From the NCBI GenBank assembly GCA_035290185.1, contig DATDUW010000022.1:1579-65578 (forward strand): a stretch of 64,000 nt of DNA, read 5' to 3'. Source of the DNA: Patescibacteria group bacterium (GTDB lineage Bacteria > Patescibacteriota > Patescibacteriia > UBA9934 > GWF2-40-263). The notes beneath the pieces were generated by a model, which worked only from the letters and a program-made list of their open reading frames with translations, was not told where the DNA came from and ran no database searches. This document shows, piece after piece, positions 1,286-53,016 of this stretch. Every line of letters starts with the position of its first letter. Positions within the stretch are counted from its first letter, which is position 1. A program made the position numbers and the translations under genes.

Positions 1286-1294
1286 GATTTTTTT

Positions 1295-1489: not shown

Positions 1490-1498
1490 GGGAAACTT

Positions 1499-1939: not shown

Positions 1940-1940
1940 T

Positions 1941-3323: not shown

Positions 3324-3326
3324 TCT

Positions 3327-3836: not shown

Positions 3837-3852
3837 TCACGGTTTTGCGGCC

Positions 3853-4224: not shown

Positions 4225-4245
4225 TTTGTTGAGGAATTTTTTCTT

Positions 4246-5940: not shown

Positions 5941-5946
5941 GTCAAT

Positions 5947-8920: not shown

Positions 8921-8949
8921 AATTTTTCCATGTGGTATAATTATAACAC

Positions 8950-10588: not shown

Positions 10589-10829
10589 TTAATTTTTTTC
10601 TTCTGTTAAAATGTGCTATAATTAAAAAAGAAAAATTTGTTTGGAAAAGTTTTCATTTGAAACTCATGGGAGTTTATCCACTCCAATCTGAGTCGGAGGA
10701 AACTCAGATTGGCGAGATGAAGTTATTTTTAATGTAAAATTGATGAAGGGAGAAGACAACATTTTTGACGCAACCATCAAAACAACTAATCCACAGAGCA
10801 TTTTTTAATGCGGAATTTTTAAGTGATAT

Positions 10830-11789
10830 ATGCAAGAACAAAAGTCTTTGCACTATATACTTGGAGCATCGTTGGCTGTCATCGCTGTATTTGTGGTCGT
10901 GGCTTTGGTCATGATCAATTCTCAAGCCTCTGATACACAGGTGACGATCAACAACGTAGCTCCGTCCGTTGCAGATGTTTATCTCGCCGATTCAGCCTAC
11001 GAACAAGCATTTTTCTATTCAGGCACTGGTTTTGGTGTGATCAACGACCTGTCTGCTGGTTCTACTATTACGAGATATGTAACAGGTACGGTTGAGGACT
11101 TGAATGGTAATGGGGATATCGCAACCGTTACAGCTACTCTCTATCGATCTGGAGTAACAGACGGACATAGCTGTACAGCGGATAAAAATTCCTGTTATCG
11201 CGTTACTTCTTGTGAACTTCAGACCAATGGTAACGATGATCAAAAGGATTTCAGTTGCGAAATGGCGTTGAATTATTTCATGGACTCAACCGATGTTGGG
11301 GGTCGTTACTCAGCACAAAATTGGGTTATTTATGTTACGGTGTCTGATGGAACAGCAAACGGAAGCGATGAAGCGAAAACAGGAGAAGTTAGCACACTCT
11401 TGGCTTTAAGTATTCCGGGAAGCATTGGTTACGGGACCTTGGCTTTGGGCGCAACCACAACAAGTAGTACAAACCAAATCATGACTATTACTCAAACCGG
11501 CAACGATGAAGCCGATGTTGAAGTCTCGTCGAGCACTGCGATGGGTTGTACTGTACGCGGTTTAATCCCAGTAGCCAGTCAACAATGGTCGTTGACTGAT
11601 GTAGATTATAGCGCTGAGGGTACTACCGCACTTAGTGGTTCGGCTGCAGACACTGCTCTAAACGTTGGTTATCAAGACGATGAAGCGACTGCTCCAACAA
11701 AAAGTCTCTATTGGAATATTTCAATTCCATCCAGTGGCGTTGAGGGAGTTTGTACTGGTGCAGATACCGTCACGGCTATTGCTCATTAA
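10830..11789 (+). CDS. Secreted protein, paralog of 12138-13034
   Basis: N-terminal TM/signal. The C-terminal ~30 aa (LYWNISIPSSGVEGVCTGADTVTAIAH) is almost identical to the end of the 12138 gene. Both share a CYRxxxC motif mid-protein. Confidence 0.65.
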   Translation: MQEQKSLHYILGASLAVIAVFVVVALVMINSQASDTQVTINNVAPSVADVYLADSAYEQAFFYSGTGFGVINDLSAGSTITRYVTGTVEDLNGNGDIATVTATLYRSGVTDGHSCTADKNSCYRVTSCELQTNGNDDQKDFSCEMALNYFMDSTDVGGRYSAQNWVIYVTVSDGTANGSDEAKTGEVSTLLALSIPGSIGYGTLALGATTTSSTNQIMTITQTGNDEADVEVSSSTAMGCTVRGLIPVASQQWSLTDVDYSAEGTTALSGSAADTALNVGYQDDEATAPTKSLYWNISIPSSGVEGVCTGADTVTAIAH

Positions 11790-11810
11790 TTACAGTTCAT
11801 CCGCAAAAAT

Positions 11811-12038
11811 ATGAAATTTTTAGCTGGATTAGCTGTACTTGTCGCCTTGGTTTGTGGTCTGACCGTGGTTTCTTTGGCAAAATCATTTAAGAGTCAAGGT
11901 GCGAAAATCACGCCAGTTTCTCCGGGGACGCAAGAAGGGGTGGAGAGTTCTGTCCCTTACTCAAAGACTTCCCAAACCAAAACAGGAGTGACAATTAGCG
12001 AGTCAACAACAAAAACACAGGTGGAGATCGGCGAATAG
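11811..12038 (+). CDS. Small secreted Thr/Ser-rich protein
   Basis: 75-aa ORF with hydrophobic signal-like N-terminus, followed by an intrinsic terminator. Confidence 0.4.
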   Translation: MKFLAGLAVLVALVCGLTVVSLAKSFKSQGAKITPVSPGTQEGVESSVPYSKTSQTKTGVTISESTTKTQVEIGE

Positions 12039-12054
12039 TTTTTTGTGGAAGGAA

Positions 12055-12094
12055 ACCTCGTCCTATTTTTCTTAGGACGAGGTTTTCGTTTTTT
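12055..12094 (+). terminator. Rho-independent terminator
   Basis: ACCTCGTCCTA / TAGGACGAGG hairpin followed by TTTTCGTTTTTT. Confidence 0.7.
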
Positions 12095-12137
12095 AAAGAT
12101 TTTGTTATAATAGATCCATTCGAGATGTTAATCTGAT

Positions 12138-13034
12138 ATGTCATTCAAGCGTTTTTTCGTTTTTATCTTCGCCCTCGTTTTCGTAACAACAAAGGTCGCT
12201 ATTGGCGGAGATAATTTTACCCCAACTGTGGAATCAGTCTTTCTTCATAAGAGTCCTTTTATTAATGCAGACGCTTATGAGAATGGTATTATCAATGATT
12301 TGGTGGCTTCCGGGACGCTGAATCTTTATTTGAATGGTTTGGTTCAGGATATGGATGGGAGTAGTGATATCGTGTCGGTCTCCGGGGTTTTTTATCGCAG
12401 TGGTGCACCTATTGGAGCGGATTGTTTGGCTGATAACAATTTTTGCTATCGTATCGCCACCTGTAATACGCAAACCACGGAGAATCCTTTTCAACTTCGT
12501 TACAGCTGTCCATTGAGTGTGTGGTATTACGCCGATGCCACGGTAGGCGGCGGGCGTTATGAAAATGAGGATTGGCGGGCTTTTATTCAGGTAAACGATC
12601 AGGTTTCCTCCAGTTTTAATAATTTTTTTTCTAGGGAAGTTTCTACTCTTTTAGCGTTGACTATTCCCGATAGGATTGATTTTGGTCCCAGGAGTCTTGG
12701 AAGCATCACGACTAGCGAAAATAATGTGGCAATGCCTATTTCGCAAGGAGGAAATGTTTTAGCTGATGTCGAGGTCTCTGGATCGGAACCCTTGATTTGT
12801 TCAGAAAATGGCAGTATTCCTGCACAGAATCAAGGCTGGGCGTTAATGGACGTCGGTTTTGGTGACAGCGTAGCACTCACGTCGTCGGCTGTGGATACCA
12901 ATCTCAATGTTTTTTATCAAGAAGACGATTTACAAGCTTCTTTTAAGGAGCTTTATTGGAACATTTCTATTCCTTCGAGTGGCCTTAGGGGCGTTTGTTC
13001 TGGGTCCACAGTTATTACAGCCATTGCTCATTGA
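12138..13034 (+). CDS. Secreted protein, paralog of 10830-11789
   Basis: Signal-like N-terminus; conserved C-terminal block LYWNISIPSSGLRGVCSGSTVITAIAH shared with the 10830 gene. Confidence 0.65.
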   Translation: MSFKRFFVFIFALVFVTTKVAIGGDNFTPTVESVFLHKSPFINADAYENGIINDLVASGTLNLYLNGLVQDMDGSSDIVSVSGVFYRSGAPIGADCLADNNFCYRIATCNTQTTENPFQLRYSCPLSVWYYADATVGGGRYENEDWRAFIQVNDQVSSSFNNFFSREVSTLLALTIPDRIDFGPRSLGSITTSENNVAMPISQGGNVLADVEVSGSEPLICSENGSIPAQNQGWALMDVGFGDSVALTSSAVDTNLNVFYQEDDLQASFKELYWNISIPSSGLRGVCSGSTVITAIAH

Positions 13035-13056
13035 TTGCTCAAAAAATAGGGGGAGT

Positions 13057-15300
13057 ATGAAATTTTCCGATCTAAAAATAACTAGACAATTGATCGTCTT
13101 TTTCTTTTTTCTCCTAACTGTTCCCCTACTAGGCTTGAGTATTTTTTTCTATTTTCAAACGGTTAGGATCATCCAGGATACAAAAAATAACCTCCGCTAT
13201 GTATCTGTTATTCATGAAAATCGTCTTAATACGATTCTCCAGGGTTTTAATCGTCGTTTTGAAGACATGAGAGCAGACAGCGTTTTTCAGGATATTTTTT
13301 TGGATTTTTTGAACGTTCCAAGTAAGGAGAACCGATTAAAGGTAGAGACGGCCGTAGTGAATCGACATATTTCTGATGGTTCTTTTCCGGATTTTTTTCT
13401 CTTGAATCAGGACGGGACCGTTGTTTTTTCTTCTGATCAGAGGGAAGGGTTGGGTCGAAACCACGCATCCGATTCTTTTTTTACCACAGGAAAAGCAGCA
13501 CGCAGATGGCATATCCAAAAATATGGAACAACGGACGTTTTTGCATATCTTTCCGGTCCGTATATTAGAGAAAATCAGTTTTTTGGCGTTTTGGTTCTAC
13601 GAGTAGATTTTGCTCCCTTCCTTTCTTTGCATGAAAATTTTAAAACCCTGAATAAGACGGGAGAACTGCAACTTGTCGAGGCTAATGGGAACGGATGGAG
13701 ATTGATTACGCCCACAAGATTTTCTACAACCACCAACCCCTCGTCGCTCACAGACCGACTTTATGACCAGACCATGGTCTTAGAAAACAATTTTTTTGAG
13801 GCCAAAGATTATCGAGACAGAAACGTTTTTGCCATTTTGCGTCTTTTGGATGAAAAAAACCTTGGGTTAATAGTAAAAATTGACAAAGACGAAGTTTTTC
13901 TTCCACTCCTCCTTTTGGCAAGGTCCATCATTTTGATTTTCTCCTTCCTATTGGCGTTCGGTCTTGTTCTAATTTTTTTCTTCTATGTGCATGTCACCAG
14001 GCCATTGGCGCAATTGGTACGTGCAACCAAAAGCATTGAAAAAGGCGAGAAGAATTATGACCTACCAGCTGAATCAAAAAATGAGATCGGGATTCTGGTT
14101 ACGGCTTTTCAAAGAATGACGAGAAATCTTTTATTGTCGAACTCCCATCTTGAAAAAAGGGTTGTTGAGCGAACGCTCATGTTGAATAAGCGCATTGCAC
14201 AAATTAACAACGAAAAGGTTAAAGACGATGCGTTATTGTCGAGCATTGGCGAAGGATTGATTGTCACGGATAAAGAAGGTGTCATTCTTTTAGTCAATCA
14301 AGCTACAGCAACAATGTTTGGAATTAAGAAAGAAGATGTTAGTGGAAGTCATTTCTCCGAGGTTGTCCTGCTGAAGAATATTTCGGGACGTCCTATGCCT
14401 TTTCTTGCCGGTCATCCGGTATTTGAGGCTTTATCTGGTGCTAAAAAAACAGTGGGTGTTGAATTTATCTCCGAACGGTTTGGTGGTGGAAGCGATGGGA
14501 GCGGTTTTTTTCCGCTTGCCCTTACAGCAACCCCCATTGTTGTGAATGGGCAGACGATCGGATCGGTGGCAATCGTCCGCGACATTACGAAAGAAAAGGA
14601 GGTGGATCGCATGAAATCGGAGTTTATTTCTATTGCCTCACACCAATTGAGGGGTCCGATTGCTTCCATCAAATGGTATGGAGAACTCCTTGGAAAGCAA
14701 AAGGGGACTTTTCAAAAGGAATCACGCGAGTTTGTTGAACGCATCAATGTGTCCACCGAGCACCTAATTTCGCTTGTGAACGACTTTTTGAACGTTTCGC
14801 GTATTGAATCCGGAAGTTTAAAGAGCGAACCAAAAACGATTCACCCTTCGGTTTTGGTGAAAAATATCGTCGAAACGTACCAACAGGAGATTGAAAAGAA
14901 AAAAATAACCGTTCGGATAAAGAACAGGTCGTTGTTCAAGGATTTTTTTATGGATCCGGAGATGATAAGGGAGATTTACGCCAATCTTATTGCCAATTCT
15001 ATTAAATATTCTAAAAGATGTGGGAATATTTCAATACGACTCTCTGATGAAAGCGAGACAACGGATTTGGTGTTAGAAATCAAGGATGACGGCGTGGGTA
15101 TTGCCAAGGAGGAACATGGAAGGATTTTTACGAAATTTTTCCGCGCCAGCAATGCGCTGGAAGGAGGATATAAGGGTACGGGGCTTGGTTTATACACCGC
15201 GCAGATGCTTGCAACGCAAATTGGTGGTAGAATTTGGTTTGAATCGGAAAAAGGTCATGGTGCGACCTTTTGGGTTCGCCTTCCCAGGAAGGCCAAATAA
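13057..15300 (+). CDS. Sensor histidine kinase (TM, HAMP, PAS, HisKA, HATPase_c)
   Basis: ORF 12907-15300; the Met at 13057 has an AGGGGGA Shine-Dalgarno sequence. Two TM segments; H-box SHQLRGPI; N-box NLIANSIKYS; G-boxes DDGVGI and GTGLGLY. Confidence 0.85.
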   Translation: MKFSDLKITRQLIVFFFFLLTVPLLGLSIFFYFQTVRIIQDTKNNLRYVSVIHENRLNTILQGFNRRFEDMRADSVFQDIFLDFLNVPSKENRLKVETAVVNRHISDGSFPDFFLLNQDGTVVFSSDQREGLGRNHASDSFFTTGKAARRWHIQKYGTTDVFAYLSGPYIRENQFFGVLVLRVDFAPFLSLHENFKTLNKTGELQLVEANGNGWRLITPTRFSTTTNPSSLTDRLYDQTMVLENNFFEAKDYRDRNVFAILRLLDEKNLGLIVKIDKDEVFLPLLLLARSIILIFSFLLAFGLVLIFFFYVHVTRPLAQLVRATKSIEKGEKNYDLPAESKNEIGILVTAFQRMTRNLLLSNSHLEKRVVERTLMLNKRIAQINNEKVKDDALLSSIGEGLIVTDKEGVILLVNQATATMFGIKKEDVSGSHFSEVVLLKNISGRPMPFLAGHPVFEALSGAKKTVGVEFISERFGGGSDGSGFFPLALTATPIVVNGQTIGSVAIVRDITKEKEVDRMKSEFISIASHQLRGPIASIKWYGELLGKQKGTFQKESREFVERINVSTEHLISLVNDFLNVSRIESGSLKSEPKTIHPSVLVKNIVETYQQEIEKKKITVRIKNRSLFKDFFMDPEMIREIYANLIANSIKYSKRCGNISIRLSDESETTDLVLEIKDDGVGIAKEEHGRIFTKFFRASNALEGGYKGTGLGLYTAQMLATQIGGRIWFESEKGHGATFWVRLPRKAK

Positions 15301-15321
15301 TCTTTTTCTTTATCTATCCCT

Positions 15322-15699
15322 ATGAAAGGACTAAAGAAGTTTATCCTCATTGTTGAGGATGATAGTTTTTTGTCAGATATCTATCAAAATCAGCTAAAAC
15401 AAGAGGGTTTCGAGACCGAGGTATCGACTGATGGAAAAAGTGCTTTGAAAGTTTTAGAAAAAAAACGGCCGAATTTGATCGTCCTTGACATGATTATGCC
15501 GGGCATGAATGGTTTCGATTTTCTCGAAATTATGCGTAAAGAGAAGAAAAACGATGATATTCCAGTTTTTATTCTTACCAATCTCGGACAGGACGAGGAC
15601 AAGAAGCGTTGTCGCGAGCTTCGCGAATGTTCCTATTTCGTCAAGACGGAAATTTCTATTGATGACGTCGTGAGGAAAATTAAAGAACAGGTTTCATAG
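15322..15699 (+). CDS. Single-domain response regulator (CheY-like receiver)
   Basis: Receiver domain motifs (ILIVEDD...LIVLDMIMPGMNGFDFL...K). No output domain. Confidence 0.8.
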   Translation: MKGLKKFILIVEDDSFLSDIYQNQLKQEGFETEVSTDGKSALKVLEKKRPNLIVLDMIMPGMNGFDFLEIMRKEKKNDDIPVFILTNLGQDEDKKRCRELRECSYFVKTEISIDDVVRKIKEQVS

Positions 15700-15729
15700 C
15701 GATTCAAAAACGAGGGAATTTTAAAAGAT

Positions 15730-16818
15730 ATGTTGGGGTGGTCATCGGACTTTTTGAAGAAAGGAATGCACCTCTTTCCGATCAAATCGTTCGACCTGAT
15801 TGTCACAACCAAAAGCCTGTCTGTTATGCTTGGATCCGGCTTGACGGTTGTCGATGCTTTGGATATTTTAGCGGAACAAGGCCGTGGACCGCTGAAATCG
15901 GTTTTGACGCGCGTTGTTGATCGCATGAAGGCCGGACAGACGTTTTCAAATTCTTTAAAAGGCGAAAAAGGGGTCTTTAGCCCCGTGTTCATTGGCTCGG
16001 TGGAAATCGGAGAAAGGACCGGAACCTTGACAAAAGATCTAGAGCGTTTATCGGTTCAGATGGAACACGATTTTTCCGTGCGGAGAAATTTGAAATCAGC
16101 CACGGTTTATCCAGCTTTTGTCCTCACGGTTATGCTGGTGGTTGCTTTCGGTGTAGCAAAATTTGTTCTTCCGCGATTTGCCGATACCGTTCGTTCCTTT
16201 GGGGCAGAGCTCCCTTTGAGTACGAGGATTGTCGTAATTTTAGCGGAGTTTTTTGAAAGTTACGGTTCGATTTTTGCTTTGATTCTTTTGTTTTTTATCG
16301 CGGTCATTGTCGGTTTGTCGCGACGAGAATCTGCGCGGCGCCTTCTTCACCCCCTTTTTTTGAGGATACCGATCATAAATCTTTTTTTCCACGATGCCAG
16401 TCGAGCTGTTCTGTTTCGTTCTTTTGGAACCCTGCTTGACAGCGGGATTCCCATCCAAGAGGCTTTAGAAATTCTAAAACGCACGACGTCTAACTATGTC
16501 TATGCCCAGGCCATAGGAGACATCAACCGCAGGATCGTAGCCGGTCGTAGGTTGACGGAACTCTTGTCTTTTCATCCGCGTCTCTTTCCAAAGATGGTTC
16601 AAAATATGATCGGAGTGGGCGAGAGTTCTGGAGAGATGGGGAGGATTTTTTCTTTTTTGGCTCAATATTTTGAAGAGAGAATTGAAGTCCGTTCAAAAAA
16701 TTTTTCCTCCCTTTTTGAACCGATCCTTTTGCTCATTGTCGGTGCGGGCGTATTATTTTTGGCTCTTTCCGTGATCTTGCCGATCTATGATATTACGTCG
16801 TCTATTTCCATCAAATGA
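15730..16818 (+). CDS. pilC: Type IV pilus platform protein PilC (GspF family)
   Basis: Two GspF repeats with conserved E-x-G/ER-TG and GESSG motifs; three TM segments. Confidence 0.85.
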   Translation: MLGWSSDFLKKGMHLFPIKSFDLIVTTKSLSVMLGSGLTVVDALDILAEQGRGPLKSVLTRVVDRMKAGQTFSNSLKGEKGVFSPVFIGSVEIGERTGTLTKDLERLSVQMEHDFSVRRNLKSATVYPAFVLTVMLVVAFGVAKFVLPRFADTVRSFGAELPLSTRIVVILAEFFESYGSIFALILLFFIAVIVGLSRRESARRLLHPLFLRIPIINLFFHDASRAVLFRSFGTLLDSGIPIQEALEILKRTTSNYVYAQAIGDINRRIVAGRRLTELLSFHPRLFPKMVQNMIGVGESSGEMGRIFSFLAQYFEERIEVRSKNFSSLFEPILLLIVGAGVLFLALSVILPIYDITSSISIK

Positions 16819-16840
16819 TGTATTTTGAGGATAGCAATTT

Positions 16841-17839
16841 ATGTTTGATCATTTTTTTTCTGGTATTGGCGTTGACATCTCAAATCGTCATGTTCGTTTT
16901 GCGCGTGTTTCTCTCTTTCAAAAGATCCGGGGATTGAAAGAAATAGTCTTGCCAAGCGGGTTGATGGAGGACGAAATGGTGGCCCATCAAGAGGAGATTA
17001 GGAAGCGCATTGAGCGTGGTCTTGAGGAATGGCATTTGCCGAAAGGTTCATTTCGAACCACGATGCTGATTCCTGAATCAAGGATTTTTTTTACGAACGT
17101 TCTTTTAGAGAAACAGGCACCAGCCATAATGGAAGATGAGGCAAAACATCTGGCACAAAAGGATATCCCCATCCCTTTTGAACAGGCCTTTCTTACTGTT
17201 TCCAAAGGGGAAATTTCCCTTGAAGGACGATTGTTTAATGTCTACGCCTGTCAGAGAGAAATCATCAATGGTTTGAAGGCCGTGGTTGAAGTTCCGTCTT
17301 TTCGATTAATCGCCATGGAGACGAACAGTAAGGCGTTGTTGCGCCTTTTTAACCATTTCGCCTCAAAAAAGGAGAGACAGAAAGTTAAAAAAAGTCTGAT
17401 TGGTGTTGTCGATATCGGATACGATTGGACGACGGTTTCCATTTATTCGTCTTTTGGGTCCCTCTTTTTTTCTAGAACATTGTCACACAGTCACCTGGTT
17501 CAGAAAGACGGGGACGTTCCACCCCTCCCACCAGAGACCATTGGGTTGGTTCTTGAGACGATGAGAGAAACAAAGGATTTTTTTTCTAAACAAGGAAAAG
17601 AGATAGCCCTCTTTTTGTTGGGGGGGGTTGAGGCAACGCAGAAAGGCGTTCTTAAGGCCTGTCAACGAGAAGAGAAGACTCTCCCTCCCACAATCCCCAT
17701 CGGTCAGAAGTTACAGATTTCAGGTTTTGCCGCTGATGATATTCACCGTTTTGGACCAGCTATTGGTGCAGCCTATCGATCGCTCTTTCCACAAAAGTAC
17801 GCCCATCAGCACAATTTTTTTGATTCTTCCAATTCATGA
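16841..17839 (+). CDS. pilM: PilM-like actin-fold pilus assembly protein
   Basis: Sits between pilC and pilD. N-terminus IGVDISNRHVRFARV resembles the PilM/FtsA phosphate-1 motif. Weak by sequence alone. Confidence 0.45.
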   Translation: MFDHFFSGIGVDISNRHVRFARVSLFQKIRGLKEIVLPSGLMEDEMVAHQEEIRKRIERGLEEWHLPKGSFRTTMLIPESRIFFTNVLLEKQAPAIMEDEAKHLAQKDIPIPFEQAFLTVSKGEISLEGRLFNVYACQREIINGLKAVVEVPSFRLIAMETNSKALLRLFNHFASKKERQKVKKSLIGVVDIGYDWTTVSIYSSFGSLFFSRTLSHSHLVQKDGDVPPLPPETIGLVLETMRETKDFFSKQGKEIALFLLGGVEATQKGVLKACQREEKTLPPTIPIGQKLQISGFAADDIHRFGPAIGAAYRSLFPQKYAHQHNFFDSSNS

Positions 17840-17861
17840 TTTTTCGCCACCACCAGATAGT

Positions 17862-18647
17862 ATGTTTTTTTCCTTAGGGGTTTTTTTTATCGGTTCCGTC
17901 TTGGGTAGCTTTCTTTCTTCCTTGGCCAATCGAGAGAAAAAGAATGAATCAAATTTGTTTGGTCGCTCTCATTGTGTCGAGTGTAGAAAAATGTTGCTAG
18001 CGAGAGACCTTATCCCCCTTATCAGCTTTTTTCTTCTCAAAGGTCGTTGTCGTTTCTGTCACCGACCGATCGGTTGGAGAGAACCCGTGGTCGAAATCGC
18101 GGTTGGTTTTCTCTTTTTGGTTGTCTGGTGGGTTCATGGAAGTGAAGGAATCGATGTGCCTCTTATTCGTGACCTTATTTTCACGACTTTTCTGTCCCTC
18201 CTTTTTTTAACAGATGCCTATGCAGGCGTTCTTCCTCATCGATTTACCATAACAGGTATTTTTCTTGCCGTCGGATTTCATTTCTTTGTTGGTATCGCTT
18301 CAATGAGTACCCTGTTTTTTACTATTCAAAATTTTTTTTTCGGCATGATGGTCGGCGGTGGATTTTTTGCTTTACAGTACTATGTATCACAAGGGCGTTG
18401 GACAGGTGGTGGAGACATTGGTATGGGGATACTTCTCGGAGCTATTCTTGGATTTTGGTCTAGCCTGTGGGCGCTTGCCCTCGCCTATATTTTAGGTGCC
18501 TTCTGGGCAATTTTTTTGTTGTTAAACAAAAAAATAGATGTAAAAGCCCAAATTCCTTTTGGTCCATTTCTTGCCACAGCCACGTGGATTTTTTTGTTGC
18601 TTTCCCAGGTGTCGAATAGCGGACTTTACGATTTTTTACGATTTTAG
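17862..18647 (+). CDS. pilD: Prepilin peptidase PilD (A24 family)
   Basis: ORF 17628-18647; internal Met at 17862 follows the upstream stop. N-terminal TM, cytoplasmic tetracysteine zinc motif (CVEC...CRFC), and polytopic membrane body with conserved Asp. Confidence 0.85.
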   Translation: MFFSLGVFFIGSVLGSFLSSLANREKKNESNLFGRSHCVECRKMLLARDLIPLISFFLLKGRCRFCHRPIGWREPVVEIAVGFLFLVVWWVHGSEGIDVPLIRDLIFTTFLSLLFLTDAYAGVLPHRFTITGIFLAVGFHFFVGIASMSTLFFTIQNFFFGMMVGGGFFALQYYVSQGRWTGGGDIGMGILLGAILGFWSSLWALALAYILGAFWAIFLLLNKKIDVKAQIPFGPFLATATWIFLLLSQVSNSGLYDFLRF

Positions 18648-18751
18648 CACGATCTCTAGACAATTTTATGAAGGCATAGTACTATTTTCCAAGGAAAAAT
18701 GATTTCTTTTTTTGTCAAAAGTTCCTTTTTTAAGAATTTAAATTAACACGT

Positions 18752-19234
18752 ATGCGCAAGGATTTTCAGAAAGGTTTCACCCTTATCGAACTGCTTATCG
18801 TAATCGCCATCATCGCGATTTTGGCGGCTGTTGTATTTGTCGTTCTTAATCCGACTCAACGTTTCTCGCAGGCTCGCAATGCACGCCGCCAAAGCGATGT
18901 GGAAAATATTGTTGCGGCCCTCAAAATTTCTCAAGTGGACAATAATGGCAGTTATCCATCAGCAGTTTCAACACTAACGAACGGGAAATTTTATGAAATA
19001 GGGACAGCTACGACTGGTTGTGATGCTGGTTGTACAACAAAGACCACGGAAGGGTCCTGTGTGGACTTGACTGCTGGGTTGGTGACAGGCGGGTATCTTG
19101 GAAGCATTCCCATGGAACCGACCAGCGGGACAGCTTCCAAAACCTTATATTACCTCTCAAAAAATGCCACAGGAACAATTGAAGTCGGGGCTTGTACCCC
19201 AGAATTAAGTACCGCTATTTCCGTTATTCGATAA
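18752..19234 (+). CDS. Type IVa major pilin
   Basis: N-terminus MRKDFQKGFTLIELLIVIAIIAILAAV is a canonical class III signal. C-terminal Cys pair forms a disulfide loop. Confidence 0.9.
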   Translation: MRKDFQKGFTLIELLIVIAIIAILAAVVFVVLNPTQRFSQARNARRQSDVENIVAALKISQVDNNGSYPSAVSTLTNGKFYEIGTATTGCDAGCTTKTTEGSCVDLTAGLVTGGYLGSIPMEPTSGTASKTLYYLSKNATGTIEVGACTPELSTAISVIR

Positions 19235-19256
19235 TTTCATTTTTAATATCTATTCT

Positions 19257-19655
19257 ATGTCAGAATTTGAACATCATTCTTCTGATGAGGTGGCACAAGA
19301 AGAAAAGAAAAATAACGTAAGAGATTTTTATCTTACGTTGCAAGAAAAAGCTGAAAAATTGGGATGTGTAGTGAGGTTTCCGGAAATGGAGCAAGATAAA
19401 AAAGTGAAAGACACAGCCGAAAGCAAGCTAGTCATTGAAAAGGATGGTGTTTATATTTTATTTAATGGTAAGACAATAGAAGAGGTTGCTAACAAAATTG
19501 GAGAAGAAGAAAAAAGTTCAAATCTTCTGGGAGAGCTTGTTAGAGGCTGTGGTGAAGATTTTGAATTTGACTCTGTAGCACTAAATAAACATGAATCTGG
19601 AGTAATAGGCAAAGATGGAAAAATTAGATCCATGCCAAATAGTTTGAGGACCTAA
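19257..19655 (+). CDS. Hypothetical acidic protein
   Basis: 132-aa ORF directly downstream of the pilin gene; no recognisable domain. Confidence 0.4.
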   Translation: MSEFEHHSSDEVAQEEKKNNVRDFYLTLQEKAEKLGCVVRFPEMEQDKKVKDTAESKLVIEKDGVYILFNGKTIEEVANKIGEEEKSSNLLGELVRGCGEDFEFDSVALNKHESGVIGKDGKIRSMPNSLRT

Positions 19656-19675
19656 CTAGTAGATACGTCTCGATC

Positions 19676-19870
19676 ATGTTCTGGATTGCAGTCGTTGGCT
19701 GGGTTTTTTTTACGATTCCTCTCCTGGCTTTTTTCGTCTTCAGCCTATGGATGATCAGCGAGGCGAGGAAGGATGATGATCAAATTGGCTCATTCATCGG
19801 CCTCCTCTTTTTGATTTGGGTGATTGGAATTGTTCTCCTTGCGGTTTCCTATCTTTCAAAGATGTTGTAA
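19676..19870 (+). CDS. 64-aa two-TM small membrane protein (copy 2)
   Basis: About 85% amino-acid identity to the 1295-1489 product, with long identical DNA stretches (tggatgatcagcgaggcga.gaaggatgatgatcaaattggc; cttgcggtttcctatctttca). Confidence 0.6.
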   Translation: MFWIAVVGWVFFTIPLLAFFVFSLWMISEARKDDDQIGSFIGLLFLIWVIGIVLLAVSYLSKML

Positions 19871-20046
19871 ATTCGTCTTGAAGTTTTTTTCTTTCTATAC
19901 TAGGGTGGGGTAAACTTAAATTTTAAGTCTATGAGAGATGCGGGAGGTCATCCTCAAGAAGTTCATCCGCTTCTGCTTTTTCTGGGTTGACCCTAGGCAG
20001 CGGAGGCAAAGCAAAAAACGATAAAAATAAATTATTCTGAAATCCT

Positions 20047-43936: not shown

Positions 43937-44698
43937 ATGAAGAGACAGCTTTTTTCTGTCCTGGGCATCCTTTCCTTCGTCCTCATGCCCATGACGTCGG
44001 CTTTAGCCGCAACTCAGCCCACACAAGAGCAGATCGACGCTGCCAAAGCCACGGCGGCTGAGGCAAAACAGAACGCCGTTGATGCGGCCAGCGCGGCTGG
44101 TGTGACCTTCGATCAATATAAGGTGAAATTGATCGAGTTACTTGATAAGGCCGTTTCCAAACTTGATACGGCCGAGGAGACTTTGAAAAACAACGCCTAC
44201 TTGTCCCAAGCAACAAAAGACGAGCTTGTGAAGGGCCTGAACACCCTGGAAGCCAAATTGGTCGATTATAAGAATGCCGCAGATGACGCCACCTCGCTCT
44301 CGGATTTGGAGAATTTGAATAAACAGGTGATCGAACTCTTGAAACAGAATCGGACGGTCATTCAGGAAGCCATGAGGAGCGGAATCATGGTGATTGCCGG
44401 AGAGATGGTGGAGAGCATCCAGATTATCGTTGACAAGGCGGAGGCTATGTTGAAGACCCTCGAAATCCAATGTGACGTTGTTGTTCGCGACGACGCCAGC
44501 AAAGCTGATAAGGTCGATGTCACGGGCGAAAAAATTGAGGATGAAATTGCCCAGCTTGAGGACTACGGGACTCAGTTGCAAGCGAATATCACCGCCAAGG
44601 ATAAGGAAGCCACAAAGGCGACCATGAAGGCGGCCGCACAGGTAGCAGCCCAGCTTGCCAAAGACATTGCGTATTTGCAGCAACTCTGCGCTTCCTAA
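43937..44698 (+). CDS. Secreted alpha-helical/coiled-coil protein
   Basis: Signal peptide (LMPMTSALAA), Ala/Lys/Glu-rich helical sequence, C-terminal Cys pair. Confidence 0.55.
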   Translation: MKRQLFSVLGILSFVLMPMTSALAATQPTQEQIDAAKATAAEAKQNAVDAASAAGVTFDQYKVKLIELLDKAVSKLDTAEETLKNNAYLSQATKDELVKGLNTLEAKLVDYKNAADDATSLSDLENLNKQVIELLKQNRTVIQEAMRSGIMVIAGEMVESIQIIVDKAEAMLKTLEIQCDVVVRDDASKADKVDVTGEKIEDEIAQLEDYGTQLQANITAKDKEATKATMKAAAQVAAQLAKDIAYLQQLCAS

Positions 44699-46116: not shown

Positions 46117-48195
46117 ATGCCTTCATCTTGGAAACGTCAGAAACGCCTTTCGGCCCACCGGGCCGCTCAGAGCTCTGTTGCGGGGAAACGATGGAAGACG
46201 TCGGTCTTGGCTGCTTTTTTTCTCGTTGCAACGGTCGGTTTGGCCGTTTTGAATTTTCCCAGTTCGTGGAATCGAGGCCTCGCCTCTGCCGGTTCTCTCG
46301 TCGGTCGTGACCTTTCGTTCGTAAATCTGTCCGAAAACCCTTTTCGTCTCGGTTTGGATCTGCAGGGAGGCACCCATCTGGTCTATGAAGCGGACATGGC
46401 CCAAATTCCTTCCGAAGATCGCGAGAATGCTCTTCAGGGCGCACGCGACGTGATTGAACGACGTGTGAATGCCTTTGGGGTGGCTGAACCGGTTGTCCAG
46501 ACAACATCCGCTGGAGGTTCCTATCGCGTTTTTGTGGAATTGGCGGGTGTTTTGGACGTGAAAGAAGCTATTAAACAGATCGGAGAAACGCCGATTTTGG
46601 AATTTAAGGAAGAGGGGCAACAGCTGGACCGTGCACCAACGGAAGAGGAAACAGCCGAGCTGGCGCGGCGGCAAAACGAAGATCGTGGGCGTGCCCAAGA
46701 GGTGTTTGTCAATGTACAGGCAGGCACAGATCCTGGCACGGCTCCGGATGGAAAACCGTACACCTGGCAAAGCGTGAAGAGTGCGACTCTCTCCCTTGTG
46801 GCTTACGCCCCGATTCTCAAAGCTATCGAGGATGCCAGCACTCCTGCCGGAAGTCTTGTCACGTCTGTGATCGAGACGCCGGAAGGGTTGAACATCGTTC
46901 GATTCGTAAAAAAAGATCCGGCCAAAGAGCTGCTCCTCTCCCATCTCCTCATTTGTTTTGAAGGAAAGATGGCTTGTACGAATCCGATTCCGTCTTTGGA
47001 GGCGGCAACGAAAATTCGCGATCTCCGTGCGCAGGCGACTCCAGAAAATTTTGCCGTGCTTGCGGATCAGAACTCAACAGACAGGACCACACCGGGCGGT
47101 GACCTCGGATGGTTGTCTCCTGGGCAGACCATTCCTGCCTTTGAATCCGCTGCTTCTGCCCTTTCCGTCGGGAATATTTCCGACGTTGTTGAAACAGATT
47201 TCGGCTATCATCTCATTTTCAAACGGGAAGAGCGCCCGGTGACCGTTTATGCTTTTGAGCGGATCCTCCTTCCCCTTACATCGATAACGGATATCGTTCC
47301 ACCTGCTTCGCCTTGGAAGAATACAGAGCTTTCGGGAAAGCAGCTGAAGCGCGCGACCGTCCAATTCGACCAGCAAACAGGGACACCGATGGTTTCCTTG
47401 CAATTCAACGATGAGGGTTCAAAGCTGTTTGGAGAGCTGACAGCCAAAAATGTTGGGAAACCCGTTGCTATTTTTTTGGACGGAGCGCCGATCTCGACGC
47501 CGGTGGTCAATGAAGCCATTTATGGCGGGAGTGCGGTCATTACGGGAGATTTTACCATTGAAGAGGCTAAAACACTGGCACAACGCCTGAATGCCGGAGC
47601 TTTGCCGGTTCCCGTTCAACTTCTTTCCCAAGAGACTGTCGGTCCAACGCTTGGCCTTGCTTCCCTGACTAAGAGTGTTCAAGCGGCTTTGATCGGATTT
47701 TTGTTGGTGTCGCTGTTTATGATTGTGGTCTATCGATTGCCTGGCGTTTTGGCAACTCTGGCTCTTGTTTTCTATGCCATGTTGAACCTGTTTATCTATC
47801 GGTTGTTCGGTGTGACCGTGACTCTGGCTGGCGTTGCCGGGCTTGTGCTTTCACTGGGGATTGCTGTGGATGCTAACGTCCTTATCTTTGAACGGTTTAA
47901 GGATGAGTTTCGATCCGGTCGTGACCTTGCCTCTTCTTTGGAAGAAGGGTTCAGGCGTGCCTGGCCGCCTATCCGCGACGGGCATGCGACAACGCTTATC
48001 AGCGCTCTGGTTCTATTCTCTTTCAGTTCGAGTTTTGTCAAAGGGTTTGCCTTAACGTTGGCCATCGGCGTTTTGCTCAGCCTTTTTACAGCCATTGTCG
48101 TCGTCCGTGCCTATTTGAGGACGATTCGGGGATGGCGGTGGTTTAAGGCCCCGTGGTTTTACCGCACGGGTCGGTCGTCTGTTTCTGAACGCTAG
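46117..48195 (+). CDS. secD: Protein translocase subunit SecD with an inserted PpiC/parvulin-type PPIase domain
   Basis: SecD GLDLQGGTHL motif, P1-head region and six C-terminal TM helices. An embedded parvulin signature (DLGWLSPGQTIPAFESAASALSVGNISDVVETDFGYHLIFK) sits between them. Confidence 0.85.
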   Translation: MPSSWKRQKRLSAHRAAQSSVAGKRWKTSVLAAFFLVATVGLAVLNFPSSWNRGLASAGSLVGRDLSFVNLSENPFRLGLDLQGGTHLVYEADMAQIPSEDRENALQGARDVIERRVNAFGVAEPVVQTTSAGGSYRVFVELAGVLDVKEAIKQIGETPILEFKEEGQQLDRAPTEEETAELARRQNEDRGRAQEVFVNVQAGTDPGTAPDGKPYTWQSVKSATLSLVAYAPILKAIEDASTPAGSLVTSVIETPEGLNIVRFVKKDPAKELLLSHLLICFEGKMACTNPIPSLEAATKIRDLRAQATPENFAVLADQNSTDRTTPGGDLGWLSPGQTIPAFESAASALSVGNISDVVETDFGYHLIFKREERPVTVYAFERILLPLTSITDIVPPASPWKNTELSGKQLKRATVQFDQQTGTPMVSLQFNDEGSKLFGELTAKNVGKPVAIFLDGAPISTPVVNEAIYGGSAVITGDFTIEEAKTLAQRLNAGALPVPVQLLSQETVGPTLGLASLTKSVQAALIGFLLVSLFMIVVYRLPGVLATLALVFYAMLNLFIYRLFGVTVTLAGVAGLVLSLGIAVDANVLIFERFKDEFRSGRDLASSLEEGFRRAWPPIRDGHATTLISALVLFSFSSSFVKGFALTLAIGVLLSLFTAIVVVRAYLRTIRGWRWFKAPWFYRTGRSSVSER

Positions 48196-48200: not shown

Positions 48201-49118
48201 ATGTCTGTTATTTCTTCCTTTCCTTTTGTCCGTCTGCGCCGCGTTTGGTTTGCCTTTTCCGCGATGCTGATTCTGGCGAGCCTTGTGGTTCTCGCGGTTT
48301 TTGGTCTTCGCTTCAGCATTGATTTTACCGGAGGGAGTTTGCTTGAGGTCCGTTTTTCCGACGAGGTTCCCTCAACACAGGAGATCGGCACGCGAGCTTC
48401 CGAAGCTGGCTATGCTGCAGCCACCGTTCAAACGGCAGGAGTTGGAAAAGCGATTCTCCGCCTTCCAACGCTTTCGGAAGAGCAACACCAGGCCCTTCTC
48501 GGATCCCTTCAGCAGGCCTATTCCGGTCTGACGGAAGAACGGTTTGATTCCATTGGGCCTGCTATTAGCGGAGAGCTGCGCCGAAGCGCCTTTATCGGCG
48601 TCGGTGTTACCCTTTTCTTGATCGGTTCCTATATCGCTTGGGCGTTTCGGAAAGTTTCCGAGCCGGTTAAATCATGGAAATACGGGATACTGACGGTTTT
48701 GTGTGCTCTCCACGATGTGGTGGTTCCCCTCGGGGCGTTTGCACTCTTGGGAGCCTTTTTCCATTGGGAAGTGGGAACAGCCTTCATTGCTGCCCTTTTG
48801 ACGATTCTTGGTTATTCGATCAGCGATACGGTCGTGGTTTTTGACCGGACGCGGGAAAATCTGCTGCATCATCCGGAAGGGACGTTTGGGGACGTGGTGG
48901 AACGCAGTATCCGTCAGACGTTCGTCCGCTCCCTTAATACGAGTCTTACGACCTTGTTAGCCCTGGCGGCCATTGCCGTGTGGGGAGGAGAAAGTACCCG
49001 TCCGTTTGCCGTGGCCTTGGGTATCGGCATTCTGATCGGGACTTATTCGTCCATTTTTATCGCGAGCCCCTTGCTCGTCTCTTGGGAAGAATGGCGGAGG
49101 AAGCGAAGGGTGGCTTGA
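48201..49118 (+). CDS. secF: Protein translocase subunit SecF
   Basis: N-terminal TM plus periplasmic domain and five C-terminal TM helices with the conserved SecF LD...GYS...D motif; directly downstream of secD. Confidence 0.85.
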   Translation: MSVISSFPFVRLRRVWFAFSAMLILASLVVLAVFGLRFSIDFTGGSLLEVRFSDEVPSTQEIGTRASEAGYAAATVQTAGVGKAILRLPTLSEEQHQALLGSLQQAYSGLTEERFDSIGPAISGELRRSAFIGVGVTLFLIGSYIAWAFRKVSEPVKSWKYGILTVLCALHDVVVPLGAFALLGAFFHWEVGTAFIAALLTILGYSISDTVVVFDRTRENLLHHPEGTFGDVVERSIRQTFVRSLNTSLTTLLALAAIAVWGGESTRPFAVALGIGILIGTYSSIFIASPLLVSWEEWRRKRRVA

Positions 49119-49201
49119 GGAGGGCTCTTCTTTTCAGAAGGAGAAAAGTGATCGTAGGACGGTCGCTTTTTTCTTTTTCTGTGCTATACTTTTTTCAGTC
49201 T

Positions 49202-50902
49202 ATGTTCGACATTTTGTTTTCGATTCCCGATCATTTTTCGTTTGAGGAATTTTTCCGTCAGCCGATCGATGTCATTGTTTTTCAACTGATCCTTTTTTTT
49301 GGTTGGATTCCGTTCGTAGGTCTGCTTGTTTGGGGTTATCTTCAAACGTACCTTCAGTTTAAGCAGGAAAAATACGTGAAGGGGTTAAAGAATATCATGC
49401 TGGCTATTGATGTTCCGCGCATGACCGAACAAAGCCCCAAGGCCATGGAGAACATGTTTGCGACCTTGCAGGGCGCATTTTCTACGCCGACCTGGAAGGA
49501 GAAGTGGATCCTGGGAAAGATGCCGGCGAAATTCAGTTTTGAGATCGTTTCACGGGACGGTTATACGCAGTTTTATGTCCGTTGCGAAACCAAGTACCGC
49601 GATCTCATTGAGGCTGGGATTTACGCCCAGTACCCGGATGCCCAAATTATGGAAGCAGAAGACTACGTGACAGATGTCCCTTCGGAGTTTCCCGATAATG
49701 AATGGAATTTGTGGGGAACGGAACTCACTCTGGCAAAGGACGAGTTTATGCCCATCCGGACCTGGCCCTTGTTTGAGCACCCTCTGACCCAGGAACTCAA
49801 GGATCCGCTGGCTATTATTTTGGAACAGATGGGACGTATGCGTCCAGGAGAGGTTTTTTGGTTTCAGATCCTTTGCGTTCCGTTCAGTCAGGAATGGAGG
49901 GAGGCCGGAATTAAGTATATCAGCAAGATTTACGGAATTAAGGAAACCGTAAAAAAATCCAAATGGGAAGAGGCCTTAGCCTCTACGCTCTGGCTTCCAC
50001 ACCAGGTTTTGGAAGAGACCACCGGAGCGAATTTGCTCGGATTGCTGGGGGTGAATTCCGGCGACCAAGCCAAGCCAAAAGACGAAGACATGTGGAAAGC
50101 CTTTAAAATTACGCTTCAGGAAAAGACTCAAGTGGAGGGGATTGCGAATAAGGTTTCCAAACTGGGATTCAAAACGAAGATTCGCATGGTCTATGCGGCC
50201 AAAAAGTCGGTTTACAGTAAGGGAACCCGCGTGCCCTTTGTCAAAGGCATGCTTTTGCAATTTTCCCACCAGGATTTGAATTCCTTTAAGATGGTGGGTT
50301 CTCAAATGCCAAAGGACGATTATTTTTGGCAGGCATGGTCTTATGGAAAGAGACAGACAAAATTGGTCAAAGCCTACAAGAGGCGTCTCTTGACCGTTGG
50401 TTCCACCCCAAAGATTTTGAACATTGAAGAGCTGGCTACTCTTTTTCACTTCCCGTCTATTACCGTTAAAGCCCCGCTTATTAAGAAGACCGAGGCACGT
50501 CGCGCTGAGCCTCCGGTCGGGCTTCCCGTGGCTTTCGGGGATGAAAAAGATCTTTTTTCGTCTTTTCCTCCGAAAGTTTCTGAACCAGTGTTTGTGCCTT
50601 CCTTGCCGGTAGAACCGCCTTTAGAACCAGAAATCCGTTTGCCTGGGCCGGCGGTCTCACCGCCCATCCGCCGGGTTGATCCCTCGCCCGCGCCAGTCAA
50701 AGAATCTTCTTTTTCCGTTTCTCTTCCTCCGGTTCCAGATCGGAAGAGCACGATTCCGGATGCCATTCGAGTCTTGATTGAGCCGGGAGTGGAATTTGAG
50801 GATGTCATGCGAGCAAGATTAACGGACCAGACAGGAGGAAAAGCATCGAAAACGGACGTGGAAGACGAAGGAGGAAAACCGCCTGAAAATTTGCCCGTGT
50901 AA
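49202..50902 (+). CDS. Membrane-anchored hypothetical protein with Pro-rich C-terminal tail (first gene of the ATPase/Cys-rich cluster)
   Basis: ORF 48980-50902 overlaps secF. The Met at 49202 gives a single N-terminal TM (VIVFQLILFFGWIPFVGLLVWGYL), then ~400 aa of unknown fold, then PxxP-rich tail. Confidence 0.55.
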   Translation: MFDILFSIPDHFSFEEFFRQPIDVIVFQLILFFGWIPFVGLLVWGYLQTYLQFKQEKYVKGLKNIMLAIDVPRMTEQSPKAMENMFATLQGAFSTPTWKEKWILGKMPAKFSFEIVSRDGYTQFYVRCETKYRDLIEAGIYAQYPDAQIMEAEDYVTDVPSEFPDNEWNLWGTELTLAKDEFMPIRTWPLFEHPLTQELKDPLAIILEQMGRMRPGEVFWFQILCVPFSQEWREAGIKYISKIYGIKETVKKSKWEEALASTLWLPHQVLEETTGANLLGLLGVNSGDQAKPKDEDMWKAFKITLQEKTQVEGIANKVSKLGFKTKIRMVYAAKKSVYSKGTRVPFVKGMLLQFSHQDLNSFKMVGSQMPKDDYFWQAWSYGKRQTKLVKAYKRRLLTVGSTPKILNIEELATLFHFPSITVKAPLIKKTEARRAEPPVGLPVAFGDEKDLFSSFPPKVSEPVFVPSLPVEPPLEPEIRLPGPAVSPPIRRVDPSPAPVKESSFSVSLPPVPDRKSTIPDAIRVLIEPGVEFEDVMRARLTDQTGGKASKTDVEDEGGKPPENLPV

Positions 50903-50904
50903 TT

Positions 50905-53016
50905 ATGCCTGCTTACGAAGATCACGATCATGAGAAGGACGTCATCTATTTTGCCGCGACGAATTATCGCAATCAGATGCGGAAATTTGGCATTCGCACG
51001 GATGATCGGCGTCGACACATGTATGTGATCGGGAAGACAGGCATGGGAAAGACGACGCTCCTCGAGAACATGATCTTGGCGGATATTTATAAGGGCCATG
51101 GATGTGCTTACGTTGATCCCCACGGGGACACGGCTGAAAAGATCATTGATTTTATTCCGGAATGGAGACAGAAAGACGTTGTCTATTTCAATCCGTCCGA
51201 TTTTGAATATCCGATGGGTTTTAATATTCTCGAGTCGTATGACCCCAACACCCGGCACGTTATTGCCGCCGGACTCATGGGGGTATTTAAAAAGATCTGG
51301 CCGGATGTGTGGAGCGCTCGCATGGAGTACATCCTCAACAATTCGATTTTGACGCTTTTGGAAAATCCAGGCAATACGCTTTTGGGGATCAATCGTCTGC
51401 TGGTTGATCGAGATTTTCGGGTAAAAATGGTTGGAAAGGTGAAGGATCCAGTGGTGAAATCCTTTTGGATCACGGAGTTTGAACAATGGGAGCCAAAGTT
51501 TCGCACCGAGGCTATTGCCCCGATTCAGAACAAGGTCGGACAGTTTCTTGCAACATCCCTTGTGAGAAACGTTGTTGCCCAGGTCACGTCGACCATTGTG
51601 CCGCGCAAGTTCATGGACGAGAGCAAAATTTTTATTGTCAATCTTTCTAAGGGACGGATCGGAGAAGATGCCATGAAACTTTTGGGTGGAATGCTCATTA
51701 CGAAAATGCAACTTTCCGCCATGGAACGCGTAGACATCCCCGAGAAGGAACGGCGAGACTTCTATCTCTATATCGATGAGTTTCAAAATTTTGCCACAGA
51801 GAGTTTTGCTTCCATTCTTTCTGAGGCTCGCAAATATCGGCTGGCTTTGATCATGGCCCATCAATACATTGAACAGTTGACCGAAGAAGTCCGTGATGCT
51901 GTGTTCGGAAACGTCGGGTCTCTCCTTACTTTTCGTGTTGGTTCTCCGGATGCGCTCTTTTTGGAAAATGAGTTCATGCCCACGTTTACGCATGAGGACT
52001 TGGTCAACCTGGCCAAATATGAAATTTACCTGCGGCTCATGATTAATGGGGTTGCCTCTGAGGCCTTCTCGGCCCTAACGTTGCCTCCGATTGCCCAAAC
52101 AACGCATTCAACGGATTCGGTGATTGCAAGTTCGCGCGACCAATTCGCCAGGCGTCGATCCGACGTGGAAGCGGCGATTCTTCAATGGAGCGAGATGAAC
52201 CCCGAAGAGACGGGAGCAGAGGAAGTGGAAAAGCTTTTCGATGAGGCCGATGCCAAGCGCAAGGCTGCAAAAAAGTTTGGCAACCGGCCCGTGTTCGAAT
52301 ATGACTGTTCGCGCTGTGGCAAACACATGGTTTTGCCCGTAGAGTTGGATAAGAGCCGGCCGATCTACTGCGAAACGTGTATTGAGGCTGTGCGAGAGGA
52401 TCGCCGTCAAGGGAAAAAGCCGGAAGGAGCCGTTGGCTCCGCATCCTCCCCGAGTCCAGTCCCAACCCCCCAGACCGTTGTCAGCCCCGAGACGCCGCCG
52501 TTGGTTCCGCCGCCTCCGCCTCCTCCGACGGCCCCTGCTCCAGCAGTGAAGCCTTTGTCCGCTCCCAAGGCGCCTTCGTTACAAGCTGGGACATTCGTTG
52601 TAAAAAAAACAGAAGGAGAAATCAGTCTTGCCTCCCTTCAGGAAAAGACAAAGACCCTGCCTGAGCCGTTGCCACCGCAACCTATTCCTTTAGAACTTCC
52701 GAAAACCGGAATGGATTTTCTCTCTTCTCAAAAAGCAAAGATTCCCCCTGTTTCTCCTCTGCCTGCTGCTGCGGCTGATCCTCTTTCTTCTTCGCAAAAA
52801 CGGAAACGGCGGCATAAGCATTCCTCCTCCATCTCTTCGGCTTCTCCCCCTCCTCCATCCCCCCCGCTAGGATGGAAAAATGACCCGGCCCCCCGGCGAC
52901 CCGGCCCGGCAAACCCCGTCTCCGGACCCCGTGTTTCCCCGCCCACGCCGGCATCTTCTGCCCCTGTCAAACCCCCTCCATCGCGTCCAGATCCCGGTGA
53001 AATTTTTCCCTGGTAG
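50905..53016 (+). CDS. TraD/VirD4-like (type IV coupling protein family) P-loop ATPase without TM anchor, with C-terminal zinc ribbon and proline-rich tail
   Basis: Walker A GKTGMGKTT, Walker B YLYIDEFQNF, arginine-finger region ARKYRLALIMAHQ. C-x2-C...C-x2-C ribbon, then a ~200-aa Pro-rich low-complexity tail. Confidence 0.75.
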   Translation: MPAYEDHDHEKDVIYFAATNYRNQMRKFGIRTDDRRRHMYVIGKTGMGKTTLLENMILADIYKGHGCAYVDPHGDTAEKIIDFIPEWRQKDVVYFNPSDFEYPMGFNILESYDPNTRHVIAAGLMGVFKKIWPDVWSARMEYILNNSILTLLENPGNTLLGINRLLVDRDFRVKMVGKVKDPVVKSFWITEFEQWEPKFRTEAIAPIQNKVGQFLATSLVRNVVAQVTSTIVPRKFMDESKIFIVNLSKGRIGEDAMKLLGGMLITKMQLSAMERVDIPEKERRDFYLYIDEFQNFATESFASILSEARKYRLALIMAHQYIEQLTEEVRDAVFGNVGSLLTFRVGSPDALFLENEFMPTFTHEDLVNLAKYEIYLRLMINGVASEAFSALTLPPIAQTTHSTDSVIASSRDQFARRRSDVEAAILQWSEMNPEETGAEEVEKLFDEADAKRKAAKKFGNRPVFEYDCSRCGKHMVLPVELDKSRPIYCETCIEAVREDRRQGKKPEGAVGSASSPSPVPTPQTVVSPETPPLVPPPPPPPTAPAPAVKPLSAPKAPSLQAGTFVVKKTEGEISLASLQEKTKTLPEPLPPQPIPLELPKTGMDFLSSQKAKIPPVSPLPAAAADPLSSSQKRKRRHKHSSSISSASPPPPSPPLGWKNDPAPRRPGPANPVSGPRVSPPTPASSAPVKPPPSRPDPGEIFPW

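Follow-up and report, generated by a model that had tools for sequence, protein, structure and literature searches.

A gene in a 64,000-nucleotide stretch of DNA from an ultrasmall Patescibacteria group bacterium of the candidate phyla radiation (contig DATDUW010000022.1; the whole stretch is referred to here as the window) raises the question of whether a working SecD protein and a parvulin-type peptidyl-prolyl isomerase (PPIase) are joined in one polypeptide and, if so, what the added domain does at that site. The original prediction, made from the letters of the sequence alone, had noticed a parvulin signature embedded in the secD gene at 46117 to 48195. Comparison with domain profiles, solved structures and related loci bore this out, and further indicated that the insert is a tandem, in which an apparently degenerate parvulin is followed by an intact one.

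Architecture of the fused SecD

By each SecD membership criterion examined, the protein is a SecD. It scored 374.9 bits with the NCBIfam profile TIGR01129 for SecD (cut-off, 244.4 bits), the match being broken into two stretches by the insert. The SecD topology of a first transmembrane (TM) helix, a large extracytoplasmic P1 domain made up of base and head, and a bundle of five TM helices was recovered in an AlphaFold2 (AF2) model, in Foldseek comparisons, and in an alignment to the Thermus thermophilus SecDF structure 3aqp. The parts of the gene, and the secF gene that follows it, are as follows:

46117..48195, forward strand: secD with embedded tandem parvulin module; single uninterrupted open reading frame, 692 aa
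46198..46254, forward strand: TM1, residues ~28-46 (AF2 helix 25-46; topology from homology to SecDF 3aqp)
46336..46614, forward strand: N-terminal part of the P1 base (Sec_GG plus SecD_1st, residues 74-166; Pfam and alignment to T. thermophilus SecDF)
46615..46893, forward strand: insert-A, putative eroded first parvulin-like domain, residues 167-259 (profile evidence)
46894..47271, forward strand: intact parvulin (PpiC-type PPIase domain), residues 260-385 (Pfam, PDB sequence matches and residue mapping)
47272..47316, forward strand: segment leading back into the P1 head, residues 386-400, with a conserved SPWKNT motif at its end (W400 invariant)
47317..47610, forward strand: P1 head, the preprotein-binding moving part of SecD, residues 401-498 (Pfam; T. 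thermophilus SecDF alignment from residue 160)
47611..48156, forward strand: TM2-TM6 bundle, including D585 (Pfam SecD_SecF_C)
48201..49118, forward strand: secF, 305 aa, 5 nt 3' of the secD stop (TIGR00966, 276 bits; cut-off, 160 bits)

Pfam domains were matched along the whole protein, and SecD_1st, SecDF_P1_head and SecD_SecF_C each exceeded the Pfam gathering score:

Residues 74-95: Sec_GG, E 9e-07
Residues 107-166: SecD_1st, E 2.4e-15
Residues 260-367: Rotamase_3, E 1.1e-16 (61.8 bits; cut-off, 22.5)
Residues 296-367: Rotamase, E 1e-15 (58.9 bits; cut-off, 21.7)
Residues 295-382: Rotamase_2, E 4.2e-09 (37.7 bits; cut-off, 27)
Residues 401-498: SecDF_P1_head, E 1.8e-32
Residues 501-668: SecD_SecF_C, E 2.1e-13

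The parvulin (residues ~260-385) is where the original prediction had placed it, between the SecD N-terminal region and the P1 head. Both halves of the signature that it quoted are present: GGDLGW at residues 327-332 (nucleotides [nt] 47095-47112) and FGYHLI at residues 362-367 (nt 47200-47217). When the insert was compared with PDB sequences by phmmer, its solved relatives were SurA (E 6.6e-12) and PrsA (2e-10), followed by Ess1, Par14 and Pin1; the stronger stretch of the SurA match falls in the P2 domain. Agreement on this scale lies well outside what chance would produce.

In order to locate the insertion site, the flanks were compared with PDB sequences by the same method. Window residues 73-165 correspond to T. 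thermophilus SecDF residues 30-117, and window residues 405-671 correspond to residues 160-426, so that approximately 240 residues stand in place of the ∼43 found in T. thermophilus, a net gain of ∼197. The insertion point is the junction at which the N-terminal portion of the P1 base meets the P1 head. The Escherichia coli SecD is also longer at this junction (chain residue 319 corresponds to window residue 396, versus residue 160 in T. thermophilus), and thus the junction seems to tolerate insertions. By homology with the SecDF topology, the region from TM1 to the start of the TM bundle (∼505-510) probably lies outside the cytoplasmic membrane. Alignment places the flanks on T. thermophilus SecDF and the insert on SurA P2, PrsA, Pin1 and Par10.

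The full-length AF2 model had a mean predicted local distance difference test score (pLDDT) of 87.5, with most of the insert above 90. The elements modeled in the parvulin domain follow the order beta-alpha-alpha-beta-alpha-beta-beta at a pLDDT of >90, which fits the parvulin fold. Foldseek comparison of the full-length model gave the SecDF structures 5xan, 5xap, 5yhf and 3aqp as the top matches, the I-form 5XAN being first (E 1e-24); among the matches listed there were only SecDF and resistance-nodulation-division (RND) transporters, and no parvulin fold match.

The segment that precedes the intact parvulin, insert-A (residues ~167-259), had no Pfam match in the window protein. However, the profile of insert-A aligned by hhalign with that of the parvulin domain from 79 species (probability 97.4%, E 1.3e-11), and the alignment covers the helix, the GGDLG loop and the C-terminal strands. 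A hidden Markov model built from the parvulin domain matched the insert-A region in 22 of 80 related loci, and Pfam recognized two Rotamase stretches in one relative (P0122). In distant relatives insert-A still reads "...GADFEALAKE.S.D..TK..GGDLGF...", without either histidine; in the window the alpha2-alpha3/GGDLG segment is deleted and there are no catalytic histidines. Modeled alone, insert-A had an AF2 pLDDT of 85.7, and a Foldseek search of this model against the PDB found no match (best E = 2), so that its parvulin origin rests on profiles rather than on fold. These results suggest that insert-A is a parvulin-derived, eroded and histidine-less domain, and therefore that a degenerate parvulin and an intact one stand in tandem within the insert.

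Membership in the SurA, PrsA or PpiD chaperone families was considered and rejected, since the protein has no helical chaperone domain. Neither a SurA_N domain nor a PrsA-type helical chaperone domain was matched in the protein with Pfam or NCBIfam, and only one long helix (176-201) precedes insert-A in the AF2 model. The module may nonetheless work like these chaperones without belonging to their family.

The translocation motor of the host protein was evaluated by residue mapping. In T. thermophilus SecDF, D340, D637 and R671 reportedly form the proton relay (Tsukazaki et al., 2011). D585 of the window SecD corresponds to D340 (from the alignment offset) and is invariant in 65 homologues. 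In an alignment to 3aqp, SecF residues D209 and R243 correspond to D637 and R671. A secF-like reading frame also lies directly downstream in 62 of the 80 related loci. The SecDF motor thus appears intact, with no sign of a decayed SecD.

An exact-sequence look-up found that an identical protein is already public from several sources (HLD17927.1, from a 99-kb contig of a metagenome-assembled genome). Its annotation is "protein translocase subunit SecD" only, and the parvulin is unmentioned. Because the public annotation says only SecD, the feature is hidden from database users.

Conservation, distribution and genomic context

The survey of related genomes that followed from the original prediction found the same insertion throughout. 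Rotamase domains occurred together with SecD domains in all of the 120 best database homologues (52-63% identity, 605-789 aa), of which those with names belong to "Candidatus Uhrbacteria" or "Patescibacteria group" and have SecD as their only annotation. A scan of one genome per GTDB species with peptide patterns, W[KVT]NTxLSG among them, detected a relative in at least 328 species; this number is a lower bound because the scan required exact peptide patterns. In 80 of 80 loci that were fetched, the parvulin lies inside SecD in the order P1 base, insert-A, parvulin, P1 head and TM bundle. The lineages with the fusion are mainly Uhrbacteria, and also Magasanikbacteria, Falkowbacteria, Paceibacter, Parcubacteria and Minisyncoccota. 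The insert is 224-254 aa long in close relatives.

Residue counts below refer to 79 of the 80 fetched species-level loci or to 65 aligned close homologues. Mean column identity in the 65 homologues was highest in the P1 base (0.83), followed by the P1 head (0.78) and the TM bundle (0.74); it was 0.64 in the parvulin and 0.48 in insert-A, which is the least conserved part of the protein. This pattern suggests that the intact parvulin is under clear constraint and that the first domain is decaying.

In order to evaluate the active site, the parvulin domain was aligned with human Pin1 and E. coli Par10. The correspondences are as follows:

H276: Pin1 H59
S320: Pin1 S111
D322: Pin1 C113 (Asp, as in PrsA-type parvulins)
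L330: Pin1 L122
T338: Pin1 M130 (variable in the family)
F342: Pin1 F134
F362: Pin1 S154 (Phe, as in Par10)
H365: Pin1 H157

The dual-histidine motif of parvulins (Pin1 H59/H157) is present in the window protein, and the position at which parvulins have Cys or Asp (Pin1 C113) holds D322. Asp at this position has been reported for active PrsA-type parvulins (bioRxiv 10.1101/2024.09.05.611430). H276 and H365 occur in 79 of 79 species-level loci (61/65 and 64/65, respectively, in the close homologues), and L330 and F342 occur in 78 of 79. The catalytic His/Cys/Met set that had been expected is therefore present in part: both histidines stand, Cys is replaced by Asp, and Met is replaced by Thr. 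At the level of sequence, the domain appears to have all that defines a parvulin except at one pocket position.

A phospho-specific parvulin of the Pin1 type was ruled out. The corresponding loop, C280-F-E-G-K-M-A-C287-T-N-P, lacks the basic cluster of Pin1 (K63, R68 and R69), and the domain therefore appears to be of the phospho-independent type.

The same loop, between beta1 and alpha1, is the one that sets substrate specificity in Pin1. It holds two cysteines seven residues apart, C280 (46954-46956) and C287 (46975-46977), in the motif C-[FWY]-x-G-x-x-x-C. Both are invariant in the close homologues (65/65) and in the species-level loci (79/79), and are absent from a divergent fusion, P0261. 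The two may be joined by a disulfide outside the cytoplasmic membrane, or might serve as an element that is structural or sensitive to redox state.

P0261 (L081, 8001-10346; 781 aa) has a larger insert of ∼340 aa, in which further parvulin-like segments, also degenerate, are present. The gene directly downstream of it is not secF but a UPF0102/NERD-like gene, in a context that resembles the candidate phyla radiation (type IV secretion system pilin, VanW). Another relative, P0164 (L083, 1757-3571; 604 aa), has a lipoprotein-type signal (…LTGC…) and two complete parvulins, both with the His motifs, followed by a domain like the SecDF P1 head; a TM bundle is absent. This protein resembles the periplasmic module of SecD in a free, lipid-anchored form, and might be an origin or an offshoot of the fusion.

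In a library of representatives at 50% identity, 211 proteins matched the insert profile at an E of ≤1e-30. Among the best 150 of these 211, roughly 25-30 are of the SecD-fusion type, and the rest are multi-parvulin proteins resembling SurA or PpiD. A fused secD of the Uhrbacteria type is present in many species-representative records titled 'uncultured Gammaproteobacteria bacterium' (metagenome-assembled genomes; L001, L003, L005, L007, L016-L018 and others), and in one record each titled 'Binatia' and 'Vicinamibacterales' (L050 and L079). Such titles look like placeholder or wrong taxonomy, and give no evidence for the fusion outside Patescibacteria.

A full-text literature search found no description of a SecD-parvulin fusion, most subscription journals being outside its coverage. 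The sequences and their automatic Pfam matches are already public; the fusion as such was not found described.

A scan confined to the 64-kb window found no second parvulin gene. Next to secF, 48980-53016 spans two reading frames. The first, of 640 aa and with a GTG start as listed, has no Pfam match; since it shares 139 nt with the 3' end of secF, translation probably begins downstream of the listed start. The second encodes a VirD4/TrwB-like type IV coupling protein of 703 aa, in which a treble-clef zinc finger and a long Pro-rich tail are recognizable. Coupling proteins of this type have been reported to be common in Patescibacteria (PMC12102498). Upstream, ∼1.4 kb from secD, 43937-44698 encodes a 253-aa protein that has, besides a hydrophobic signal-like segment at its N terminus, a long and probably helical stretch rich in Ala, Lys and Glu, and that likewise has no Pfam match; a cytidylyltransferase-like gene and a uridine-kinase-like gene lie between it and secD. 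The window has a step in G+C content, from 0.41-0.48 in 1-20000 (about 0.41-0.44 from 4 to 20 kb) to 0.46-0.54 in 20001-64000, which could reflect an acquired island or a different class of genes.

Possible roles of the module

The function that we consider most likely, and with good probability, is that of a foldase or holdase tethered to the translocon and acting on the chains that SecD pulls out. The protein would be the working SecD of a proton-driven SecDF, carrying a two-domain parvulin module at the point where the P1 base joins the mobile P1 head. Because the link is covalent, the module would sit beside the chain-capturing part of SecD, at the SecYEG exit. The P1 head would capture and pull the emerging chain, and the adjacent parvulin would bind it, catalyze phospho-independent prolyl cis/trans isomerization, and shield the chain until it is folded. 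That the module acts as a PPIase or chaperone, and does so on substrates in the course of translocation, is an inference.

According to one proposal (PMC12102498), Patescibacteria lack an outer membrane. In such a cell a foldase would need a tether, since a soluble one would be lost by diffusion; fusion to SecD may do the job that a lipid anchor does for PrsA and a TM anchor does for PpiD. Associations of separate proteins offer a precedent. SurA binds the holo-translocon, and AlphaFold modeling puts its two parvulin domains on the P1 head of SecDF (PMC9987972). In Mycoplasma pneumoniae the active parvulin lipoprotein Mpn444 cross-links to SecD (bioRxiv 10.1101/2024.09.05.611430). By analogy, the fusion would make covalent a partnership of the kind seen with PpiD-SecD, SurA-SecDF and Mpn444-SecD.

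Several observations weigh against a catalytic foldase. Both parvulin histidines also have a structural role, and thus their conservation is no proof of catalysis. The Pin1 C113 position is Asp in 58 of the 79 loci, and it is Glu in 9 and Gly in 8. The proline-pocket position of Pin1 M130, Thr in the window, is M, Y, T or F in the family. The predicted template-modeling score of the AF2 model was only 0.53, so that the model does not fix where the parvulin lies with respect to the P1 head. Several parvulin domains of envelope proteins, those of SurA P1 and PpiD among them, either lack catalytic activity or can be dispensed with. The importance of the parvulin domain of PpiD, in particular, has been questioned (PMC9643414).

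The variable M130 position, the Gly at the C113 position in some loci and the doubt over the PpiD parvulin, together with the loss of both histidines from the eroding first domain, could be explained if the module were a non-catalytic holdase or docking module that enlarges the binding surface of the P1 head or passes chains on, with no role in prolyl isomerization, like the inactive parvulin domains of SurA (P1) and PpiD. However, the second domain has kept its two histidines at every locus counted and the pocket Leu and Phe at all but one, and its C113 position is acidic in 67 of 79. Since the neighboring domain lost all of these residues, selection appears to have acted on the active site of the second domain in particular. 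Thus, a purely non-catalytic role seems rather unlikely.

A further possibility is energy coupling. Because the tandem sits between the static P1 base and a P1 head that swings with proton flow, it is conceivable that head strokes driven by the proton motive force move the module, or open and close it, so that it works as an energy-coupled extracytoplasmic chaperone or foldase. We regard such coupling as quite improbable. If true, it would place an energy-coupled chaperone in a compartment whose chaperones are otherwise assumed to operate with no supply of energy.

It is very improbable that the insert is only a mechanical or structural elaboration of P1, in which the parvulin would serve as the scaffold of a spacer, of a lever that alters the reach or stroke of the head, or of an anchor to the cell wall, an S-layer or a partner. 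The expansion of the same junction in E. coli SecD and the variable length of the insert, up to that of P0261, are compatible with such a role, but a mere spacer would not be expected to keep active-site residues and a cysteine pair invariant across 79 species.

Apart from its metagenomic origin, nothing suggests that the sequence is a chimeric assembly or a mis-called gene joining a parvulin gene to secD, and this is effectively excluded by the uninterrupted reading frame with SecD segments on both sides of the insert, the identical protein in several public sources, and the recurrence of the architecture in all 120 best matches and all 80 independent loci, from many studies.

Comparison with known systems

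Work on E. coli, Vibrio and Mycoplasma, based on cross-links, low-resolution electron microscopy and AlphaFold models, argues that the P1 head of SecDF cooperates physically with the parvulin-type chaperones PpiD, SurA and Mpn444. A natural gene fusion fixed across a large clade is independent 'Rosetta-stone' evidence for a genuine and ancient SecDF-parvulin partnership, and provides a simple single-polypeptide system for studying how the translocon motor hands chains over to a foldase. Genome-reduced cells that are proposed to have no outer membrane may in this way keep a folding catalyst at the protein exit.

The best match to the window protein in both sequence and fold is canonical SecDF (T. 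thermophilus, 3AQP/5YHF; Deinococcus radiodurans, 5XAN/5XAP), with which it shares TM1, the P1 base, the P1 head, TM2-6 and the relay residues. Canonical SecDF differs in having no ∼197-residue tandem parvulin at the base-head junction; furthermore, SecD and SecF are encoded by separate genes in the window, in contrast to T. thermophilus SecDF.

Among parvulins, the closest solved relative, via its P2 domain, is E. coli SurA (1M5Y), which also has tandem parvulins of which the first is inactive or degenerate and the second is active. SurA is soluble, however, and has a helical chaperone core formed from its N and C termini, whereas the module in the window is a covalent part of SecD. PrsA of the Firmicutes (4WO7/1ZK6) is an extracytoplasmic, membrane-tethered, phospho-independent parvulin of monoderms, with Asp near the position of Pin1 C113 (bioRxiv 10.1101/2024.09.05.611430). 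It differs in being a separate protein with a lipid anchor that dimerizes through its NC chaperone domain; in the window the tether is SecD and there is no NC domain.

Two further systems already place parvulins at the translocon. E. coli PpiD, with YfgM, is like the window module a membrane-anchored, parvulin-containing chaperone at the Sec translocon, but it is a separate single-pass protein in which parvulin catalysis is doubtful, whereas the active-site residues of the window module are conserved and its link to SecD is covalent. Mpn444 and Mpn436 of M. pneumoniae are surface parvulin PPIases of a wall-less host with a reduced genome and no outer membrane, and they resemble the window module in their cross-links to SecD and in the Asp at the Pin1 C113 position (bioRxiv 10.1101/2024.09.05.611430). 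They differ in being large lipoproteins that form trimers and carry both a chaperone-like domain and a propeller; their association with SecD is non-covalent.

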